Source of the DNA: Shigella phage ESH35
DNA: 64,000 nucleotides
Direction: 5' to 3' (one strand)
Sequence record: ON528745
Below, in pieces: positions 2,323-27,521 of the stretch; the stretch's first letter is position 1; each line of letters starts with the position of its first letter. The notes under the pieces were generated by a model. The model was not told where the DNA came from. It was given only the letters and a program-made list of their open reading frames with translations, and made no database searches. A program made the translations under genes and the position numbers.

Positions 2323-2351
2323 AGCCTTATCAACTACATGAGGAAATTAAA

Positions 2352-2726
2352 ATGATGGAAACTGGTAAATTTTACGTATTAGACCCTGCTGCAAAAAAAC
2401 GATTCATCGCTGGTAATCCTGATGCTAATTCGTGCATGGTCAAGTTGATGGAACAACATGGCAGTTCCTTCAAAGTCCTGGATATGTGTTATATTGAAGG
2501 TGATTATTTTGTTGAAAAAGTTGAAATGAAAGATGGCACCATCCTGAATAGTATGAGTGATGATGAGTACTTTGAACTCGCTGAATGGGAATTCTGTCAC
2601 TTCCTGGAAGTTGATAGCGATGCTTCTGATGATGTTGATGATACTCAAACCATTCATGTACAGGTAAATCATAAAAATGCGGCAGAAGTCATTGCACTGA
2701 TTAAAGCAACTTTTGATATTCAGTAA
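2352..2726 (+). CDS. Hypothetical protein (124 aa), paralog of the 1907-2293 ORF
   Basis: ATG after GAGGA; own early-type promoter upstream; acidic C-terminal half. Confidence 0.6.
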   Translation: MMETGKFYVLDPAAKKRFIAGNPDANSCMVKLMEQHGSSFKVLDMCYIEGDYFVEKVEMKDGTILNSMSDDEYFELAEWEFCHFLEVDSDASDDVDDTQTIHVQVNHKNAAEVIALIKATFDIQ

Positions 2727-2732
2727 AAAGTA

Positions 2733-2762
2733 GTGTACAACTAAATGGGGCTATGATATAAT
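2733..2762 (+). promoter_or_regulatory. T4 early-type sigma70 promoter
   Basis: GTGTACA, 17-nt spacer, TATAAT. Confidence 0.6.
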
Positions 2763-2799
2763 GGTCCCATACTGAGTTACCAAATAACTGGAGAATAAA

Positions 2800-3042
2800 A
2801 TGAGATTACAACGTCAGAGCATCAAAGATTCAGAAGTTAGAGGTAAATGGTATTTTAATATCATCGGTAAAGATTCTGAGCTCGTTGAAAAAGCTGAACA
2901 TCTTTTACGTGATATGGGGTGGGAAGATGAATGCGATGGATGTCCTCTTTATGAAGATGGAGAAAGCGCAGGATTCTGGATTTATCATTCTGACGTCGAT
3001 CAGTTTAAAACTGATTGGAAAATTGTGAAAAAGTCTGTTTGA
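2800..3042 (+). CDS. Hypothetical small protein (80 aa)
   Basis: ORF with RBS GGAG upstream; downstream of an early-type promoter. Confidence 0.55.
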   Translation: MRLQRQSIKDSEVRGKWYFNIIGKDSELVEKAEHLLRDMGWEDECDGCPLYEDGESAGFWIYHSDVDQFKTDWKIVKKSV

Positions 3043-3052
3043 GGAAAATATT

Positions 3053-3408
3053 ATGTCTGACATTCGTGTAGCTGGAATTGCTCGAGTAAGTATTCGTTGC
3101 CAACTTAAAACTGCGCCCGGGACGGCTTATATTAATTTATCACACGACCTATGTTCTAGTGAAAGACCATTAACTGGTGTAATTACGTTTTACGCTGGAG
3201 TTGGCGGAAACGAATTTACTGTAGGCGAATTTGTTGGTTGTAAATTAAAAGTTCAGAAGAATGTGTTAGAACTTTTTAGCGATCTTTATGGTGATAGTGA
3301 TGAAGTTTTTGATGAAATCGCGCAAGCAGTTAACAGAGGAATGGTAACTTTAGTTAAAATGATTAAAGATAGCGGATTTGCTTCTGGCCCCTTTCAGTGG
3401 GAGGTAAT

Positions 3409-3412
<4 letters not shown>
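3053..3412 (+). CDS. Hypothetical protein (119 aa)
   Basis: ORF tightly packed after the previous gene with GAGGA RBS. Confidence 0.55.
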
Positions 3413-4235
<823 letters not shown>

Positions 4236-4254
4236 AATAACGCGCGGCGGAAAT

Positions 4255-4602
4255 ATGAATTTTAATTATTACCCTATTCTATTAGAAAAAGATGAGAAAC
4301 AGCCAAAGTGGCAGGGTCCTCAGTTTATTAAAGGTGTCTATCAATTAGTAGTTCCTAAAGACAAGATTTATAGCAGTTGTTTCACTGAATCCGCTTGTAG
4401 TATTTTCGGTAATAGTTCTCCGTATTGGAATTTTGACATAAAGCTGGATAGAAATATCGATATTTGGTTGAAAGCTATGGATATTGGTAATATCACGTTT
4501 GATGAGAATAATTATCATATTATTGGTCGCTTTTCCAAACGCGGTAAAGAATTATATTTCACGCCTGAAATTGAGAGAAAATTTGATGCTAAACCGTATT
4601 GA
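4255..4602 (+). CDS. Hypothetical protein (115 aa) in an insertion between frd and td
   Basis: ORF with upstream GGCGGAAAT-ATG; no family recognised; lies inside a 416-bp segment flanked by duplicated TAAATGAAA. Confidence 0.55.
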   Translation: MNFNYYPILLEKDEKQPKWQGPQFIKGVYQLVVPKDKIYSSCFTESACSIFGNSSPYWNFDIKLDRNIDIWLKAMDIGNITFDENNYHIIGRFSKRGKELYFTPEIERKFDAKPY

Positions 4603-4647
4603 TTATTTAGCTTCATAAAATGTATTATAATTTATATAAGGTACTAA

Positions 4648-5508
4648 ATGAAACAATACCAAGATTTAATTAAAGACATTTTTGAAAATGGCTATGAAAC
4701 CGATGACCGAACGGGCACAGGAACAATTGCTTTGTTCGGTACTAAATTGCGTTGGGATTTAACCAAAGGTTTTCCTGCAGTAACAACTAAAAAGCTCGCC
4801 TGGAATGCATGCATTGCTGAGCTAATATGGTTTTTATCAGGAAGCACAAATGTCAATGATTTGCGATTAATTCAACATGATTCATTAATTCAAGGCAAAA
4901 CAGTCTGGGATGAAAATTACGAAAATCAAGCAAAAGATTTAGGATACCATAGCGGTGAACTTGGTCCAATTTATGGAAAACAGTGGCGTGATTTTGGCGG
5001 TGTAGATCAAATTATAGAAGTTATTGATCGTATTAAAAAACTGCCAAATGATAGGCGTCAAATTGTTTCTGCGTGGAATCCAGCTGAACTTAAATATATG
5101 GCATTACCGCCTTGTCATATGTTCTATCAGTTTAATGTGCGTAATGGATACCTTGACCTTCAGTGGTATCAACGTTCGGTAGATGTTTTCCTCGGTCTTC
5201 CATTTAATATTGCATCATATGCTACGTTAGTTCATATTGTAGCTAAGATGTGTAATCTTATTCCGGGAGATTTGATATTTTCTGGTGGTAATACTCATAT
5301 CTATATGAATCACGTAGAACAATGTAAAGAAATTTTATGTCGTGAACCTATGGATTTATGCGAATTACAATTAAAATTTCCAGATGAATTTGATGAATGG
5401 GACACAGAATCGCAGGTATTTTGGTTGAGTCAATTTGCAAAGCCTCATAATTTTGTTCTTAACAACTATGAATCACATCCTCCTATTAAAGGAAAGATGG
5501 CGGTGTAA
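4648..5508 (+). CDS. td: Thymidylate synthase, uninterrupted (no group I intron)
   Basis: 286-aa continuous [29 protein letters not shown]...[11 protein letters not shown]...PIKGKMAV; TS active-site Cys motif present. Confidence 0.95.
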
Positions 5509-21289: not shown

Positions 21290-22749
21290 TTCTTAAAATT
21301 CTGAATGAAATAGCATCTATTGGTTCAACTAAGCAAAAGCAAGCAATTCTTGAAAAGAATAAAGATAATGAATTGCTCAAACGAGTATATCGTCTGACTT
21401 ATTCTCGTGGGTTACAGTATTATATCAAGAAATGGCCTAAACCTGGTATTGCTACCCAGAGTTTTGGAATGTTGACTCTTACCGATATGCTTGACTTCAT
21501 TGAATTCACATTAGCTACTCGGAAATTGACTGGAAATGCGGCAATTGAGGAATTAACTGGATATATTACTGACGGTAAAAAAGATGATGTTGAAGTTTTG
21601 CGTCGGGTGATGATGCGAGACCTTGAATGCGGTGCATCAGTATCTATTGCAAACAAAGTTTGGCCAGGTTTAATTCCTGAACAACCTCAAATGCTGGCAA
21701 GTTCTTATGATGAAAAAGGCATTAATAAGAATATCAAATTTCCAGCCTTTGCCCAATTAAAAGCTGATGGAGCTCGGTGCTTTGCTGAAGTCAGAGGTGA
21801 TGAATTAGATGATGTTCGTCTTTTATCACGAGCTGGTAATGAATATCTAGGATTAGATCTTCTCAAGGAAGAGTTAATCAAAATGACTGCAGAAGCTCGC
21901 CAGATTCATCCAGAAGGTGTGTTAATTGATGGCGAATTGGTATACCATGAGCAAGTTGAAAAGGAGCCAGAAGGCCTAGATTTTCTTTTTGATGCTTATC
22001 CTGAAATTAGTAAAGCTAAAGAATTCGCCGAAGTAGCTGAATCACGTACTACTTCTAATGGAATCGCTAATAAATCTTTAAAGGGAACTATTTCAGAAAA
22101 AGAAGCTCAATGCATGAAGTTTCAGGTCTGGGATTATGTTCCGTTGGTAGAAATATACGGTCTTCCGGCGTTTCGTTTAAAATATGATGTACGTTTTTCT
22201 AAACTAGAACAAATGACATCAGGCTATGATAAAGTAATTTTAATTGAAAACCAGATAGTAAATAACCTAGATGAAGCTAAGGTAATTTATAAAAAGTATA
22301 TTGACCAAGGTCTTGAAGGTATTATTCTTAAAAATATCGATGGATTATGGGAAAATGCTCGTTCAAAAAATCTTTATAAATTTAAAGAAGTAATTGATGT
22401 TGATTTAAAAATTGTAGGAATTTATCCTCACCGTAAAGACCCTACTAAAGCAGGTGGTTTCATTCTTGAATCAGAGTGTGGAAAAATTAAAGTAAATGCT
22501 GGTTCAGGCTTAAAAGATAAAGCCGGCGTAAAATCACATGAACTTGACCGTACTCGCATTATGGAAAACCAAAATTATTATATTGGAAAAATTCTAGAGT
22601 GCGAATGCAACGGCTGGGTAAAATTAGATGGACGTACTGATTACGTTAAGCTATTTCTTCCAATTGCAATTCGTTTACGTGAAGATAAAACTAAAGCTAA
22701 TACGTTCGAAGATGTATTTGGCGATTTTCATGAGGTAACTGGTTTATGA
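21286..22749 (+). CDS. 30: ATP-dependent DNA ligase
   Basis: 487-aa product with ligase adenylation motif KADGARC; same length as T4 gp30. Confidence 0.95.
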   Translation: MILKILNEIASIGSTKQKQAILEKNKDNELLKRVYRLTYSRGLQYYIKKWPKPGIATQSFGMLTLTDMLDFIEFTLATRKLTGNAAIEELTGYITDGKKDDVEVLRRVMMRDLECGASVSIANKVWPGLIPEQPQMLASSYDEKGINKNIKFPAFAQLKADGARCFAEVRGDELDDVRLLSRAGNEYLGLDLLKEELIKMTAEARQIHPEGVLIDGELVYHEQVEKEPEGLDFLFDAYPEISKAKEFAEVAESRTTSNGIANKSLKGTISEKEAQCMKFQVWDYVPLVEIYGLPAFRLKYDVRFSKLEQMTSGYDKVILIENQIVNNLDEAKVIYKKYIDQGLEGIILKNIDGLWENARSKNLYKFKEVIDVDLKIVGIYPHRKDPTKAGGFILESECGKIKVNAGSGLKDKAGVKSHELDRTRIMENQNYYIGKILECECNGWVKLDGRTDYVKLFLPIAIRLREDKTKANTFEDVFGDFHEVTGL

Positions 22750-22931
22750 AAGCTTACTTAGAAACAATTGTCGTGGCTCAAAAAGAAGGTGGAGATGTTT
22801 CCACTGCGGTATCGCAGGTTATTCTTGAATTCCCAGATAAACTAGCATATGATGAATTCACGGAAAGATTTGATCCATATGAAAAAGGTCCAAAGTTTGA
22901 AGTATATCGTACTCTTTTAGCTCTCTATTAA
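22746..22931 (+). CDS. Hypothetical small protein (61 aa)
   Basis: ORF overlapping the ligase stop; followed by a terminator hairpin. Confidence 0.45.
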   Translation: MKAYLETIVVAQKEGGDVSTAVSQVILEFPDKLAYDEFTERFDPYEKGPKFEVYRTLLALY

Positions 22932-22933
22932 TT

Positions 22934-22956
22934 AAAGGCCTTCGGGCCTTTAATTT
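22934..22956 (+). terminator. Terminator hairpin between ligase operon and alt
   Basis: AAAGGCC-TTCG-GGCCTTT followed by AATTTT. Confidence 0.6.
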
Positions 22957-22964
22957 TATAAATA
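22957..22964 (+). promoter_or_regulatory. T4 late promoter (TATAAATA) for alt
   Basis: Exact TATAAATA 24 nt upstream of the alt start. Confidence 0.6.
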
Positions 22965-22987
22965 GAATAAACACTAGAGAGGATAAC

Positions 22988-25081
22988 ATGGAACTTATTA
23001 CAGAATTATTTGACGAAGATACTACTCTTCCGATTACAAACTTAAATCCAAAGAAGAAAATACCACAAATTTTTTCAGTTCATGTTGATGATGCAATTGA
23101 ACAACCAGGCTTTCGTTTATGTACCTATACATCTGGAGGTGATACTAATCGCGATTTAAAGATGGGCGATAAAATGATGCATATTGTTCCTTTTACATTA
23201 ACTGCTAAAGGCTCAATTGCTAAATTAAAAGGTCTTGGTCCAAGCCCAATTAATTATATCAATTCAGTTTTTACTGTTGCAATGCAAACGATGCGTCAAT
23301 ATAAAATTGATGCCTGCATGCTTCGTATTCTTAAGTCTAAAACTGCTGGCCAAGCTCGACAAATTCAAGTTATTGCTGATAGACTTATCCGTAGTCGTTC
23401 AGGTGGCAGATACGTCCTTCTTAAGGAACTCTGGGATTACGATAAAAAGTATGCATATATTCTTATACATCGCAAAAATGTATCATTAGAAGACATTCCA
23501 GGAGTTCCAGAAATTAGCACTGAACTCTTTACTAAAGTTGAATCGAAGGTCGGTGATGTTTATATCAATAAAGATACTGGAGCTCAAGTAACTAAAAATG
23601 AAGCAATTGCAGCATCTATTGCGCAAGAAAATGATAAACGTTCTGACCAAGCCGTAATCGTTAAAGTTAAAATTTCCCGTAGAGCAATTGCACAAAGTCA
23701 GTCATTGGAATCTTCTAGATTTGAAAGTGAATTATTCCAGAAGTATGAATCTACAGCAGCTAATTTTAATAAACCAGCTACTGCACCTTTAATTCCCGAA
23801 GCAGAAGAAATGAAAATTGGAATTAATTCATTAGCTTCTAAAACAAAGGCAGCAAAAATTATTGCTGAAGGAACGGCAGATGAACTTCACTATGATTATA
23901 AATTCTTTCCAATGAGTCAAGTCGGTGAAGTTTCAGAAAAAATTAAAGAAGTAATTTTTAATGCAATTAAAAATGAACCAACTACTTCAATAAAATGTTT
24001 AGAGAAATACGCAGCAGCTGTAAATCAATTCTTTGAAGATTATAAAGATAAATGGCTTGCTAATCATAATAAAAATCGTAAAGGACAACCAGATGAAGTC
24101 TGGGAAGAAATAACTAAAAATTCCTGGAACGCAGCAAAAACTAAATTCCTCAAACGAATGATTTACAGTTTTTCTGGAATTGGTGCTGGTCCAATGATTG
24201 ATATTACTATTGCCCGCGATGGTTCTAAATATACTCCATCACAAAAGCGTGGCATTAGAGAATATTGCGGTTCAGGATATACTGACATCAATAATCTTCT
24301 TTTAGGTCGTTACAATCCAGAACGATATGATGTAATGAGTGAAAAAGAAATTGAATCTGCTATAAATAACTTAGATTCAGCTTTTGAAAATGGTGACCGT
24401 ATACCAGAAGGCATTACAGTTTATCGTGCTCAAAGTATGACTGCTCCTATATATGAAGCGTTAGTTAAAAATAAAGTGTTCTACTTCAGAAATTTTGTAT
24501 CTACTTCTTTAACTCCTATCATTTTTGGACGTTTTGGAATCACACATGCTGGTATTGGTCTTTTAGAACCAGAAGCTCGCAATGAATTAACAGTTGATAA
24601 AAATGAAGAAGGAATAACTATTAATCCAAACGAAATAAGAGCGTATAAAGAAAATCCTGAATACGTTAAAGTTCAAATAGGATGGGCAATTGATGGAGCT
24701 CATAAAGTTAATGTTGTATATCCAGGAAGTCTCGGAATAGCAACAGAAGCTGAAGTTATTCTACCGCGTGGATTGATGGTCAAAGTTAATAAAATAACTG
24801 ATGCTTCTAATAATGACGGAACAACATCTAATAATACAAAACTCATTCAAGCTGAAGTTATGACCACGGAAGAGCTCACCGAATCGGTAATCTATGACGG
24901 AGACCATTTAATGGAAACCGGTGAAGTAGTTGCAATGACAGGTGATACTGAAATAGAAGACAGAGTTGACTTTGCATCATTTGTTTCATCAAACGTTAAA
25001 CAGAAAGTAGAATCATCTCTTGGAATTATTGCGTCTTGCATAGATATTACAAACATGCCTTACAAGTTCGTTCAAGGATAA
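22988..25081 (+). CDS. alt: Alt-like NAD-protein ADP-ribosyltransferase (virion-packaged type), copy 1
   Basis: 697-aa product starting MELITELFD; ART R/STS/ExE motifs (VYRAQ, FVSTSLTP, ATEAEVILPRG); late promoter TATAAATA just upstream. Confidence 0.85.
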   Translation: MELITELFDEDTTLPITNLNPKKKIPQIFSVHVDDAIEQPGFRLCTYTSGGDTNRDLKMGDKMMHIVPFTLTAKGSIAKLKGLGPSPINYINSVFTVAMQTMRQYKIDACMLRILKSKTAGQARQIQVIADRLIRSRSGGRYVLLKELWDYDKKYAYILIHRKNVSLEDIPGVPEISTELFTKVESKVGDVYINKDTGAQVTKNEAIAASIAQENDKRSDQAVIVKVKISRRAIAQSQSLESSRFESELFQKYESTAANFNKPATAPLIPEAEEMKIGINSLASKTKAAKIIAEGTADELHYDYKFFPMSQVGEVSEKIKEVIFNAIKNEPTTSIKCLEKYAAAVNQFFEDYKDKWLANHNKNRKGQPDEVWEEITKNSWNAAKTKFLKRMIYSFSGIGAGPMIDITIARDGSKYTPSQKRGIREYCGSGYTDINNLLLGRYNPERYDVMSEKEIESAINNLDSAFENGDRIPEGITVYRAQSMTAPIYEALVKNKVFYFRNFVSTSLTPIIFGRFGITHAGIGLLEPEARNELTVDKNEEGITINPNEIRAYKENPEYVKVQIGWAIDGAHKVNVVYPGSLGIATEAEVILPRGLMVKVNKITDASNNDGTTSNNTKLIQAEVMTTEELTESVIYDGDHLMETGEVVAMTGDTEIEDRVDFASFVSSNVKQKVESSLGIIASCIDITNMPYKFVQG

Positions 25082-25084
25082 ATC

Positions 25085-27142
25085 ATGGAACTTATTACAG
25101 AATTATTTGACGGCGCTTCGGCGCCGGTTGTTAACTTAAATCCTAAGCATAAAATACCACAAATTTTTGCTATTCAAGCCGGTGAAGAAAGCGTGCTTCC
25201 TGGATTTAGATTTTGTACATACACCTCTGGCGGTGATACGAATAAAAACGTTAAGCCAGGCGACAAAATGATGCATATCGTAATGATAGGCGTCAACGAG
25301 AAATTATCGTTAGTTAAGCTTAAAAACTTGGGTGGAAATCCAATTGGCGTCATTAATGCGGTTTTTGATACTGCTCTTCAAACAATGAAACAGTATAAAA
25401 TTGATGCATGCCTATTCCGCGTACTAAAAAGTAAAACAAATGGCGCTGCTCGTCAAATGCAAGTTATTGCTGACCGTTTAGTACGTACTAAAGGAGCAGG
25501 TCGATATGTTCTTTTAAAGGAAATCTGGGACTATGATAAGAAATACGCATATATTATGGTTTACCGTAAAAATGCCAATTTAGAAGACATTCCAGGTGTA
25601 CCTCCTATTTCAACTGAGTTATTCACAAAAGTTGAATCAAAGGTTGGTGATGTTTATGTAGACGTTAAAACAGGTAATGCTGTTCCTAAAGCTGTCGCAG
25701 TTGCTGCTTCTATTGCTTTAGAAAATGATAAGCGTACGGATCAAGCTGTTATTCAGAAAACTAAAATTAGTCGTCGATTAGCAGCACAAGCTCAATATTC
25801 TACTGTTGATGCTTCACTTCAGGGTGATAGCTTCGCTGCTAAGAAATATCAAGAGTTTGAATCTAAAGTTCCGGTATATAAAGCAGAAGGACCAATGAAC
25901 TCTGGCGTTATTCAGATTGGTTCAAACTTCAGCAAAGGAGCTATCGGTGGTATGAGAAGTGCTTCTCGTTTTAAATCTAACGATTATGAACTAGAAAGCT
26001 TCCGAAATCATATTGCATTAGCCCATGCACGTTTACGTGATCCATCTATCAAGTTGCAGAGCGATATAACATATCAAAGTTCTCAAGAATATTTAAAGAA
26101 TAAAGAATTTTTTGATTATAAAACTGATAAAATTTTAAGCGATCTTGCTGACATTAATATTTCTAATAGCTTTGATGTTATTAAGAAAATTGTCAATGAT
26201 TTAGTTAAAGGTTCTAAAGCTACGCCAGATGAAAAGACAGCTATTATTCAATTTGTCATGAATGGCATTTATAAATTAATTGATGAATCCGCTGCTCAGG
26301 CGTATGAATATGCAAGCACTGAAGTAACTCCAAAAGGATTGACTCAGGCTGAGTCTGATGTAATTGAAGATTATTGCGCAGATTCGTATGTTGAAATGAA
26401 CTCATTCCTTTTAGGTAAACCTGATTCTACACGTGAAGAATACATGGAGCGCGCTATTAAGCACATCGAGACTATGGATTCTGCGTTTGCTAAAGGTTCA
26501 GTTCTTCCTCCGGGAACTACACTTTACCGTGGCCAAGAAGTTACTTTTAAAACTTTACGTCATAATATAGAAAATAAAATGTTCTATTTCAAGAACTTTG
26601 TATCTACTTCACTCAAGCCAAATATCTTCGGTGAATATGGTAAAAATTATATGGCTTTAGATGACGCTGGAACAGTATTTTCTGGTGAAGGAGAAGGTTC
26701 AGTTGATGCTGAAGATTTAATGCATATGGGTAGTCATTCTACATATGCGAATGAAGACGCTGAAACTAATGTAGGTATGGTAATTAAAGGAGCTGAACGA
26801 GTTAAAGTTATCGTTCCAGGTCATTTATCAGGATTTCCATCCGAAGCTGAAGTTATTTTGCCGCGTGGAATTTTACTGAAGATTAATAAAGTAAGTACGT
26901 ACATGATGAAAGAAACCGCTTATAATAAGTATCTAATTGAAGGCACGATTGTTCCTCCTTCTGAACAATTAGAGGAATCGGTATATGATGGTGACCATTT
27001 GATGGAAACCGGAGAAGTTCGTCCAATGGCTGGATTTAATCAATTCCTTGTAGAAGAATCAAAAGAAGAGGAAAGCGAAGTTTCTCAAATCTTAGCTTCT
27101 TTGGTTAACATCAACGGAATGTCTAAAAAGTTCAAAATGTAG
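25085..27142 (+). CDS. Alt-like ADP-ribosyltransferase paralog, copy 2
   Basis: 685-aa product also starting MELITELFD; ART motifs (LYRGQ, FVSTSLKP, PSEAEVILPRG); N- and C-terminal regions similar to copy 1, central region divergent. Confidence 0.8.
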   Translation: MELITELFDGASAPVVNLNPKHKIPQIFAIQAGEESVLPGFRFCTYTSGGDTNKNVKPGDKMMHIVMIGVNEKLSLVKLKNLGGNPIGVINAVFDTALQTMKQYKIDACLFRVLKSKTNGAARQMQVIADRLVRTKGAGRYVLLKEIWDYDKKYAYIMVYRKNANLEDIPGVPPISTELFTKVESKVGDVYVDVKTGNAVPKAVAVAASIALENDKRTDQAVIQKTKISRRLAAQAQYSTVDASLQGDSFAAKKYQEFESKVPVYKAEGPMNSGVIQIGSNFSKGAIGGMRSASRFKSNDYELESFRNHIALAHARLRDPSIKLQSDITYQSSQEYLKNKEFFDYKTDKILSDLADINISNSFDVIKKIVNDLVKGSKATPDEKTAIIQFVMNGIYKLIDESAAQAYEYASTEVTPKGLTQAESDVIEDYCADSYVEMNSFLLGKPDSTREEYMERAIKHIETMDSAFAKGSVLPPGTTLYRGQEVTFKTLRHNIENKMFYFKNFVSTSLKPNIFGEYGKNYMALDDAGTVFSGEGEGSVDAEDLMHMGSHSTYANEDAETNVGMVIKGAERVKVIVPGHLSGFPSEAEVILPRGILLKINKVSTYMMKETAYNKYLIEGTIVPPSEQLEESVYDGDHLMETGEVRPMAGFNQFLVEESKEEESEVSQILASLVNINGMSKKFKM

Positions 27143-27202: not shown

Positions 27203-27493
27203 ATGAAATCTTCTTTGCGCTTTTTAGGTCAAGAACTCGTCGTTGAGGGCGTTATTCCCGCTGATAACGCTTTCAATGAAGCAGTTTATGATGAATTTAT
27301 TAAAATTTTCGGAACCGATAAAAAGTTTGGAATTTTTCCTTCTGAAAATTTTTCAAAGCCAGAACAGACTGAAAGTATTTTCCAAGGTGTAGTAACAGGT
27401 AAATTTGAGTCAGAAGCTCCGGTAAAAATTGAGGTTTATATTGAAGAAACCTCTGTTGCTTCAGTTGCTGCTTTTATTTCATTTCGTAAATAA
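27203..27493 (+). CDS. Hypothetical protein (96 aa)
   Basis: ORF with GAGGAA RBS downstream of the repeated early promoter/hairpin module. Confidence 0.5.
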   Translation: MKSSLRFLGQELVVEGVIPADNAFNEAVYDEFIKIFGTDKKFGIFPSENFSKPEQTESIFQGVVTGKFESEAPVKIEVYIEETSVASVAAFISFRK

Positions 27494-27499
27494 AAATAT

Positions 27500-27517
27500 G
27501 GGGACCTTTCGGTCCCC
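27500..27517. terminator. Bidirectional terminator hairpin between convergent operons
   Basis: GGGGACC-TTTC-GGTCCCC flanked by A-rich and T-rich tracts. Confidence 0.65.
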
Positions 27518-27521
27518 ATTG

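Follow-up and report, generated by a model that had tools for sequence, protein, structure and literature searches.

Tandem alt genes in Shigella phage ESH35: two Alt-family ADP-ribosyltransferases by homology, with a remnant of the second gene in phage T4

Introduction

Does a T4-like phage carry one Alt-type ADP-ribosyltransferase or two different ones? The question is raised by two consecutive open reading frames (ORF1 and ORF2) in a 64,000-nucleotide (nt) stretch of Shigella phage ESH35 (record ON528745), which we analysed as a whole and refer to as the window, with positions counted from its first letter. An initial annotation, made from the DNA sequence, had described the two ORFs as Alt-like ADP-ribosyltransferase genes with a divergent centre and suggested that they encode two injected enzymes with distinct host targets. 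Nearly all knowledge of Alt comes from phage T4, which holds a minority alt allele and has deleted the second gene; the slot-2 enzyme has never been studied because it is missing from T4. The duplication itself is not new. The T4 ORFs alt.-1/alt.-2 and other phage ORFs have been noted as paralogous duplications of alt since 2006 (PMC1524935), and alt is described as duplicated in Ac42, JS98 and Bp7 (PMC4177764); our search of the literature on the second Alt found these remarks and no functional data on the second copy. The tandem pair is in fact the ordinary, annotated state of the genus Tequatrovirus in hundreds of records, many of which already name both genes (as alt_1/alt_2, or as 'Alt-like RNA polymerase ADP-ribosyltransferase' twice).

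The reading that we favour, with a probability of roughly 0.8, is that the locus holds alt together with an ancient full-length paralogue, and that the two genes specify late, head-packaged, gp21-processed and injected arginine ADP-ribosyltransferases with different payloads.

Two full-length Alt-family genes

Both ORFs lie in tandem on the same strand, with the lengths and the 3-bp spacing initially annotated:

22988..25081, + strand: ORF1, alt, T2/T6/RB14-type allele, 697-amino-acid (aa) precursor (77.9 kDa), PHROG 802 at 4e-273
25085..27142, + strand: ORF2, intact alt paralogue (alt.-2 in RB14), 685-aa precursor (76.0 kDa), PHROG 802 at 6e-256

Each ORF covers positions 2-674 of the 674 in PHROG 802, and each matches the Pfam family PF03496 (ADPrib_exo_Tox) above its gathering cut-off of 23.4, at 1e-37 (129.9 bits) for ORF1 and 5e-20 (72.2 bits) for ORF2; in NCBIfam, neither was matched. 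Pairwise, the two proteins are 41% identical from end to end (E 7e-162). Full-length identity to T4 Alt is 71% for ORF1, in a mosaic pattern, and 41% for ORF2. The motifs named in the initial annotation (the MELITELFD starts, VYRAQ / LYRGQ, FVSTSL, EAEVILPRG and YDGDHLMETGEV) are all present in the translations, and the description of the pair as Alt-like is borne out by the family matches and by the alignment of the catalytic residues. On homology, therefore, both ORFs are full-length Alt-family ADP-ribosyltransferases, and they sit where members of the Alt family do, behind a late promoter and flanked by the genes for ligase (30) and a baseplate protein (54).

The catalytic residues of ORF1 are R480 (24425-24427), S505-T-S507 (24500-24508) and E587-A-E589 (24746-24754), and those of ORF2 are R482 (26528-26530), S507-T-S509 (26603-26611) and E587-A-E589 (26843-26851). 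In ORF2 numbering, R482, S507, E587 and E589 are invariant in an alignment of 64 family representatives; the Arg, the Ser and the Glu-x-Glu are likewise invariant when T4 Alt, ModA and ModB are aligned. The second ORF thus retains the very positions whose absence would have spoken against its being an active transferase, and both ORFs keep an intact Arg / Ser-Thr-Ser / Glu-x-Glu site. Among enzymes of this class (C3-type versus iota-type), the Glu-x-Glu form of the motif goes with specificity for arginine. In T4 Alt, activity is abolished by mutation of a Glu in this motif, reported as E577A (PMC11404850).

More distant relatives share this site and little else. The catalytic Arg and Glu-x-Glu align with those of CdtA and iota toxin Ia, and a Foldseek search with the ORF2 catalytic domain gave a probability of 1.00 to Vis, Certhrax, C3, CDTa and VIP2. 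The PF03496 toxins (C3bot, Vis, Certhrax, iota toxin Ia, CDTa and VIP2) have the catalytic fold and aligned catalytic residues in common with the Alt proteins, but at 15-21% identity. Bacteria secrete these toxins, which are equipped with delivery domains of other kinds, whereas the Alt proteins have a phage N-terminal domain (with a proposed role in head incorporation) and propeptides removed by a protease. T4 ModA and ModB resemble the pair in their invariant Arg, Ser and Glu-x-Glu and in being enzymes of phage origin whose substrates are proteins of host transcription and translation; unlike the pair, they are single-domain early proteins of about 200 aa, only 16-19% identical, made after infection and not packaged.

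Domain layout and the divergent centre

A confident AlphaFold model of ORF2, which drew on 64 diverse members of the family (mean predicted local distance difference test score, pLDDT, 79.9; predicted template modelling score, pTM, 0.73), comprises an alpha/beta N-terminal domain (about 7-195), linker helices to about 237, an all-helical module (about 250-414), a catalytic domain (about 420-625), a disordered segment at 630-636 (pLDDT < 50) and a short tail. The domains lie as follows:

23699..24232, + strand: ORF1 central module, aa 238-415
24233..24883, + strand: ORF1 ADP-ribosyltransferase domain, aa 416-632 (PF03496)
25103..25795, + strand: ORF2 conserved N-terminal alpha/beta domain, aa 7-237, a proposed 'carrier' for head incorporation
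25796..26338, + strand: ORF2 central all-helical module, aa 238-418 (AlphaFold helices over 250-414)
26339..26977, + strand: ORF2 ADP-ribosyltransferase domain, aa 419-631 (PF03496 at 5e-20; Foldseek matches)

Identity varies strongly along the protein. The comparisons below, with T4 Alt, with the first-slot Alt of the Dhakavirus JS10 and with ORF2, give protein identity for the N-terminal domain, central module, catalytic domain and C-terminal propeptide, in that order:

ORF1 against T4 Alt: 100%, 33%, 63%, 92%
ORF1 against JS10 slot 1: 46%, 68%, 93%, 49%
ORF1 against ORF2: 68%, 21%, 35%, 37%

The initial annotation placed a strong difference over the middle 300 or so residues. A divergent centre is indeed there, but the dissimilar part spans only about 180 aa (about 238-418), and the catalytic domain that follows it can still be aligned between the two copies. 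Within those 180 residues, homology is undetectable: hhalign of the ORF2 central module against the ORF1/T4-type module returned a probability of 0.3%. This profile-profile value led us to reject the two modules as diverged homologues; both are helical, and they could still share a fold. Sequence divergence of this kind is not peculiar to the ESH35 pair. The central regions of the 64 family representatives fall into more than 40 groups that BLAST does not link, and many distant relatives align to ORF2 in the N-terminal and catalytic domains only, so the central module is the variable part of the whole Alt family.

No Alt relative has been solved in the PDB, and a profile of the N-terminal and central regions found no match there either. 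The predicted N-terminal domain resembles GNAT acetyltransferases, and we considered whether it might be one. That candidate was rejected, since the cofactor motif A (Q/R-x-x-G-x-G/A) occurs in 23 of the 64 members and no match was found at the sequence level, and we treat the likeness seen in the model as a resemblance of fold only. A library of predicted viral structures contains this fold in other proteins besides the Alt relatives: it opens large phage proteins that are uncharacterised, a few of them named for zeta-toxin or deaminase domains. These model-based matches agree with a carrier role for the N-terminal domain and offer a lead towards one.

Propeptides and processing motifs

Mass spectrometry of T4 virions has placed the cuts of the gp21 prohead protease in Alt after ITE-6 and LTE-619 (PMC5694885; reviewed in PMC9026906), which removes 6 and 63 residues and leaves a protein of 68.2 kDa (PMC5694885). 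Counting residues in the T4 sequence reproduces both LTE at 617-619 and the mass of 68.2 kDa. The corresponding segments of the two ESH35 proteins are:

22988..23005, + strand: ORF1 N-terminal propeptide MELITE, gp21 motif I-T-E6, identical to ITE-6 of T4 Alt
24884..25078, + strand: ORF1 C-terminal propeptide, aa 633-697, after L-T-E632|S (the motif of T4 LTE-619), holding YDGDHLMETGEV
25085..25102, + strand: ORF2 N-terminal propeptide MELITE, gp21 motif I-T-E6
26978..27139, + strand: ORF2 C-terminal propeptide, aa 632-685, after L-E-E631|S, holding YDGDHLMETGEV

At the level of sequence motifs, both ORFs thus have gp21 sites at both ends, and the C-terminal site of ORF2 falls within the segment that the model shows as disordered. 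Across the family the Glu of the N-terminal site (E6) is conserved in 62 of 64 members and that of the C-terminal site (E631) in 63, with L or I at position -2 of the latter in 57. Cleavage at these sites would give mature proteins with predicted masses of 70.1 kDa (ORF1) and 69.2 kDa (ORF2). The C-terminal segment YDGDHLMETGEV, which the initial annotation had listed among the features common to the two enzymes, is indeed common to both; because it begins three residues after the L-x-E|S cut, however, it belongs to the removed propeptide and not to the working enzyme. Both proteins keep the two gp21 motifs found at the ends of packaged T4 Alt, and it is reasonable to infer from this that both are packaged and injected.

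A remnant of the second gene in T4

The initial annotation could not say whether the second copy corresponds to one of the T4 alt.-x ORFs. Our comparison answers this: ORF2 is the intact form of T4 alt.-1/alt.-2, and in RB14 it is annotated as alt.-2. The translation of T4 alt.-1 is near-identical to the first residues of ORF2, and the PHROGs of T4 alt.-1 and alt.-2 match ORF2 (2e-40 and 3e-38) better than ORF1 (1e-21 and 2e-19). At the DNA level, alt.-1/alt.-2 (NP_049810, NP_049809) and the first ~113 codons of ORF2 are about 95% identical. Base-by-base alignment further revealed two lesions in T4, namely the loss of one A from an A-run near window position 25244, which splits the frame, and a deletion of 1699 bp between two 9-nt direct repeats CTAAAAAGT, whose junction lies at about 5105-5113 of the T4 locus compared. 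In the window the repeats that mark the deletion are:

25424..25432, + strand: left copy of CTAAAAAGT, at the left edge of the T4 deletion (DNA alignment)
27123..27131, + strand: right copy of CTAAAAAGT, at the right edge of the T4 deletion (DNA alignment)

As the alignment contains both the 1-nt loss and the 1699-bp deletion, T4 alt.-1/alt.-2 are the remnant of a full-length ORF2-type gene, which T4 lost through a frameshift and a microhomology deletion. The T4 record carries a note that alt.-1/alt.-2 are a duplication of the first part of alt, and our sequence comparison does not support it.

Distribution, selection and exchange between genera

The window was assigned to the genus Tequatrovirus (T4-like phages), and many genomes of Escherichia, Shigella and Yersinia phages match the 4.9-kb region at 97-99% identity. 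The central region of ORF1 is 100% identical at the DNA level to that of RB14/RB51 and 92% to that of T2/T6, and from 23795 to 24223 it has no DNA similarity to T4. The second-slot genes of RB14 (alt.-2, YP_002854530), wV7, AR1, UFV-AREG1, T2 and others correspond to ORF2 at 94-98% DNA identity; the RB14-type second genes occupy the same slot with the same 3-nt spacing after alt, and nothing of substance sets ORF2 apart from them.

The interior of ORF2 was found in about 400 phage records (at least 90% DNA identity and at least 80% coverage). About 380 of these, phage T2 among them, have a central module with 95-99% protein identity, compared with 44-46% in Dhakavirus. In 91 records the sequence runs unbroken across the T4 deletion junction, and this ratio of intact to deleted genes makes two copies the majority state and T4 the exception. 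Among ORF2 orthologues from seven phages the ratio of nonsynonymous to synonymous divergence (dN/dS) is 0.03-0.05 overall, 0.07 in the central module and 0.03 in the catalytic domain, with a synonymous divergence (dS) of up to 0.29. These ratios indicate that ORF2 is kept by selection and that its centre, so variable across the family, is not evolving fast within the lineage. The mean dS of the orthologues' catalytic domain (26339-26977) is 0.34, against 0.13-0.16 elsewhere in the gene, and this more than twofold difference hints at recombination within ORF2 too.

The first slot is occupied by two discrete alleles, a T4 type of 682-684 aa and the T2/T6/RB14 type of 697 aa present in the window. 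Each is under purifying selection, and dN between them is 0.21. The T4-type first allele co-occurs with an intact ORF2 (in OE5505 and SHFML-26) as well as with a frameshifted one (in Elenatom). The Elenatom second alt gene (2836-4879 of the locus compared) has been inactivated independently, by a frameshift that yields two annotated coding sequences.

Outside the genus, the Dhakavirus phages JS10 and JS98 have the same layout (30 - alt.1 - alt - alt - alt.-3 - 54). JS10 carries the tandem pair too, spaced by 3 nt as in the window and with an ORF2-type gene as its second member, from which we conclude that the alt duplication predates the split between Tequatrovirus and Dhakavirus. The Dhakavirus slot-2 proteins have an ORF2-type centre 44-46% identical to that of ORF2. 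Although these phages belong to another genus, and DNA identity in the ligase and gene 54 flanks is only 65-69%, the slot-1 catalytic domain of JS10 is 93% identical to that of ORF1, and window positions 23668-24924 have 80% DNA identity to JS10 (2325-3581 of the locus compared). T4 Alt (NP_049811), a packaged NAD+:arginine ADP-ribosyltransferase and the positional orthologue of ORF1, presents the opposite pattern: it shares with ORF1 the N-terminal domain, most of the C-terminal propeptide, the late promoter context, the gp21 sites and the catalytic residues, but ORF1 has another central module and a diverged catalytic domain. Against ORF2, T4 Alt has the whole architecture in common, at 41% identity, and differs in a centre without detectable homology and in a catalytic domain of 35% identity; alt.-1/alt.-2, by contrast, share the ancestry of ORF2 and differ from it in the split frame and the missing 1699 bp.

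This regional mosaic, together with the DNA identities, implies that the central and catalytic block has moved between genera and that the N-terminal domain and the C-terminal propeptide stayed with the phage. By these comparisons the N-terminal domain and C-terminal propeptide track the phage lineage, and the payload, which we define as the central plus catalytic regions, differs completely between the two copies and has been exchanged between genera in the first gene. Such block movement fits a two-part design, with a carrier specific to the head and a payload that can be exchanged.

Expression signals of the pair

The initial annotation reported a terminator and an exact late promoter ahead of the pair, and both were recovered:

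22930..22955, + strand: terminator-like hairpin after alt.1, with UUCG in the loop and a T-rich tail behind it (-14.8 kcal/mol, z -4.2)
22957..22964, + strand: T4-type late promoter TATAAATA, exact match, 24 nt before the ORF1 ATG
22977..22983, + strand: ORF1 ribosome-binding site GAGAGGA, read from the sequence
25074..25078, + strand: ORF2 ribosome-binding site AAGGA, within the last codons of ORF1, read from the sequence

At the place equivalent to the hairpin, OE5505 has an annotated terminator. Exact matches to TATAAATA number 19 across the window, against 9.4 expected, and the one at 22957-22964 probably serves ORF2 as well as ORF1. At the junction, the TAA stop of ORF1 (25079-25081) is followed by ATC (25082-25084) and then by the ATG of ORF2 at 25085, and a gap of 3 nt suggests that translation of the two genes is coupled. 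A further exact TATAAATA lies inside ORF1 at 24361-24368, about 720 nt before ORF2, where it encodes Ala-Ile-Asn. We considered it as a promoter of ORF2's own and rejected it for want of conservation; as RB7 has the synonymously altered GATAAATA at this place and T4-type alleles lack the site, it is probably incidental.

Proposed mechanism and rival explanations

The features described above, read by analogy with T4 Alt, enabled us to propose a model for the pair. In the model, both genes would be transcribed late, most likely as one message from TATAAATA at 22957, and ORF2 would be translated in a manner coupled to ORF1 over the 3-nt gap. The predicted products are precursors of 76-78 kDa, each with a 6-residue N-terminal propeptide, an alpha/beta N-terminal domain, a helical centre, a transferase domain and a C-terminal propeptide of 54-65 residues. 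These precursors would be incorporated in the prohead core and clipped by gp21 after I-T-E6 and L-(T/E)-E|S to give enzymes of about 70 and 69 kDa, which would remain in the head until they pass into the cell together with the DNA. There, ahead of all phage gene expression, they would mono-ADP-ribosylate host proteins on arginine, using NAD+. ORF1 would then be the Alt of the RNA-polymerase-alpha type and ORF2 a second enzyme with a different substrate range. It is plausible that the two enzymes have different substrates and host targets, since their central modules are non-homologous and their catalytic domains are only 35% identical.

Several points weigh against this model. Packaging, cleavage, injection and activity of the ORF2 product are deduced from its motifs and from the behaviour of T4 Alt, and the literature yielded no virion proteome that reports the second copy, nor any virion proteome of a two-copy Tequatrovirus. 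The head-incorporation role proposed for the N-terminal domain draws on its co-variation with the lineage and on fold matches to large phage proteins. Both proteins have the arginine-type Glu-x-Glu motif, so their targets could overlap, and what suggests different substrates is the divergence of their sequences. Finally, ORF2 is missing from the T4 lineage (about 91 records) and frameshifted in Elenatom, from which it follows that the gene is dispensable at least under some conditions.

The main rival takes ORF2 as a redundant second dose of Alt, packaged and injected alongside the first, acting on the same targets (Arg265 of RNA polymerase alpha and others) and raising copy number or robustness. 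The common architecture, processing motifs and arginine-type Glu-x-Glu would all be expected on this account, as would the success of T4 without ORF2 and the report that T4 Alt is itself non-essential (PMC9026906). Against it stand catalytic domains with just 35% identity and central modules without detectable homology, and both copies have been under strong purifying selection since before Tequatrovirus and Dhakavirus separated, without a trace of gene conversion (DNA identity between the two 5' parts is only 68%). Simple redundancy seldom lasts that long, and the depth of the divergence and the long independent retention weaken this rival to the point where we regard it as doubtful. It also remains the case that we found no paper characterising the second copy, and so none that assigns it the known target of Alt.

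A further rival takes ORF2 for a duplicate in decay, heading for the pseudogene state of T4. That T4 and about 90 other records hold only a deleted remnant, and that the Elenatom copy is frameshifted, speaks for it, but in the window ORF2 is an uninterrupted frame of 685 codons, its orthologues have dN/dS of 0.03-0.05 with dS up to 0.29, and its central module is conserved at 95-99% in about 380 records. With neither a disrupted frame nor an internal deletion, and with purifying selection acting on it, we rejected ORF2 as a remnant of the alt.-1/alt.-2 kind and consider decay highly improbable. An ORF2 product that is made late but not injected, acting in the producing cell or serving mainly as a structural part of the prohead core with transferase activity secondary, would draw on descriptions in which Alt, besides being an enzyme, is a protein of the prohead core (PMC11404850; PMC9026906) and on the N-terminal domain and C-terminal propeptide being the regions best conserved within the phage lineage. 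Such a role is unlikely, however, given a catalytic domain in which Arg, Ser and Glu-x-Glu are invariant in all 64 representatives and dN/dS is 0.03, and given the presence in ORF2 of both gp21 sites that turn T4 Alt into its retained, injected form.

If the preferred reading of two packaged and injected enzymes is taken a step further, the Alt locus could be a two-slot delivery system in which a head-matched chassis, made up of the N-terminal domain and the two propeptides, carries interchangeable payloads, the slot-2 enzyme modifies other host proteins (possibly defence or translation factors), and cassettes are swapped between genera under host pressure. We offer this extension tentatively, at somewhat less than even odds. 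By inference, most natural relatives of T4, T2 included, would inject two different ADP-ribosyltransferases. The substrates of the second enzyme would complete the picture of T-even reprogramming in the first seconds of infection, and could explain differences in host range or defence evasion among therapeutic Tequatrovirus isolates.

Neighbouring genes

In the window the genes run 30 (ligase) - alt.1 - ORF1 - ORF2 - alt.-3, followed by the convergent genes 54 and 48, and the order from 30 to 54 agrees with T4, RB14 and JS10; in T4 it reads 30, alt.1, alt (682 aa), alt.-1 (61 aa), alt.-2 (67 aa), alt.-3 and 54. A scan for sigma-70 promoters gave no more than the chance level, and an Rfam scan of the window found nothing. 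The features flanking the pair are:

22746..22931, + strand: alt.1 homologue, 61 aa, placed as T4 alt.1 (PF24647 at 7e-28, PHROG 1976)
27203..27493, + strand: alt.-3 homologue, 96 aa, placed as T4 alt.-3 (PF17602, DUF5498, at 3e-62)
27498..27519, no strand assigned: terminator hairpin with a perfect 9-bp stem, separating alt.-3 (+) from gene 54 (-), which converge here; OE5505 annotates a terminator

The match of the alt.1 ORF to Pfam PF24647, 'Phage blade protein', spans the whole ORF, which shares 4 nt with the end of the ligase gene. The hairpin at 27498-27519 scores as a terminator on both strands, and we therefore read it as a bidirectional terminator for convergent transcription. T4 mutants in which Alt.-3 carries a C-terminal extension escape the CmdTAC defence system (PMC11618068); the alt.-3 copy in the window is of wild-type length.

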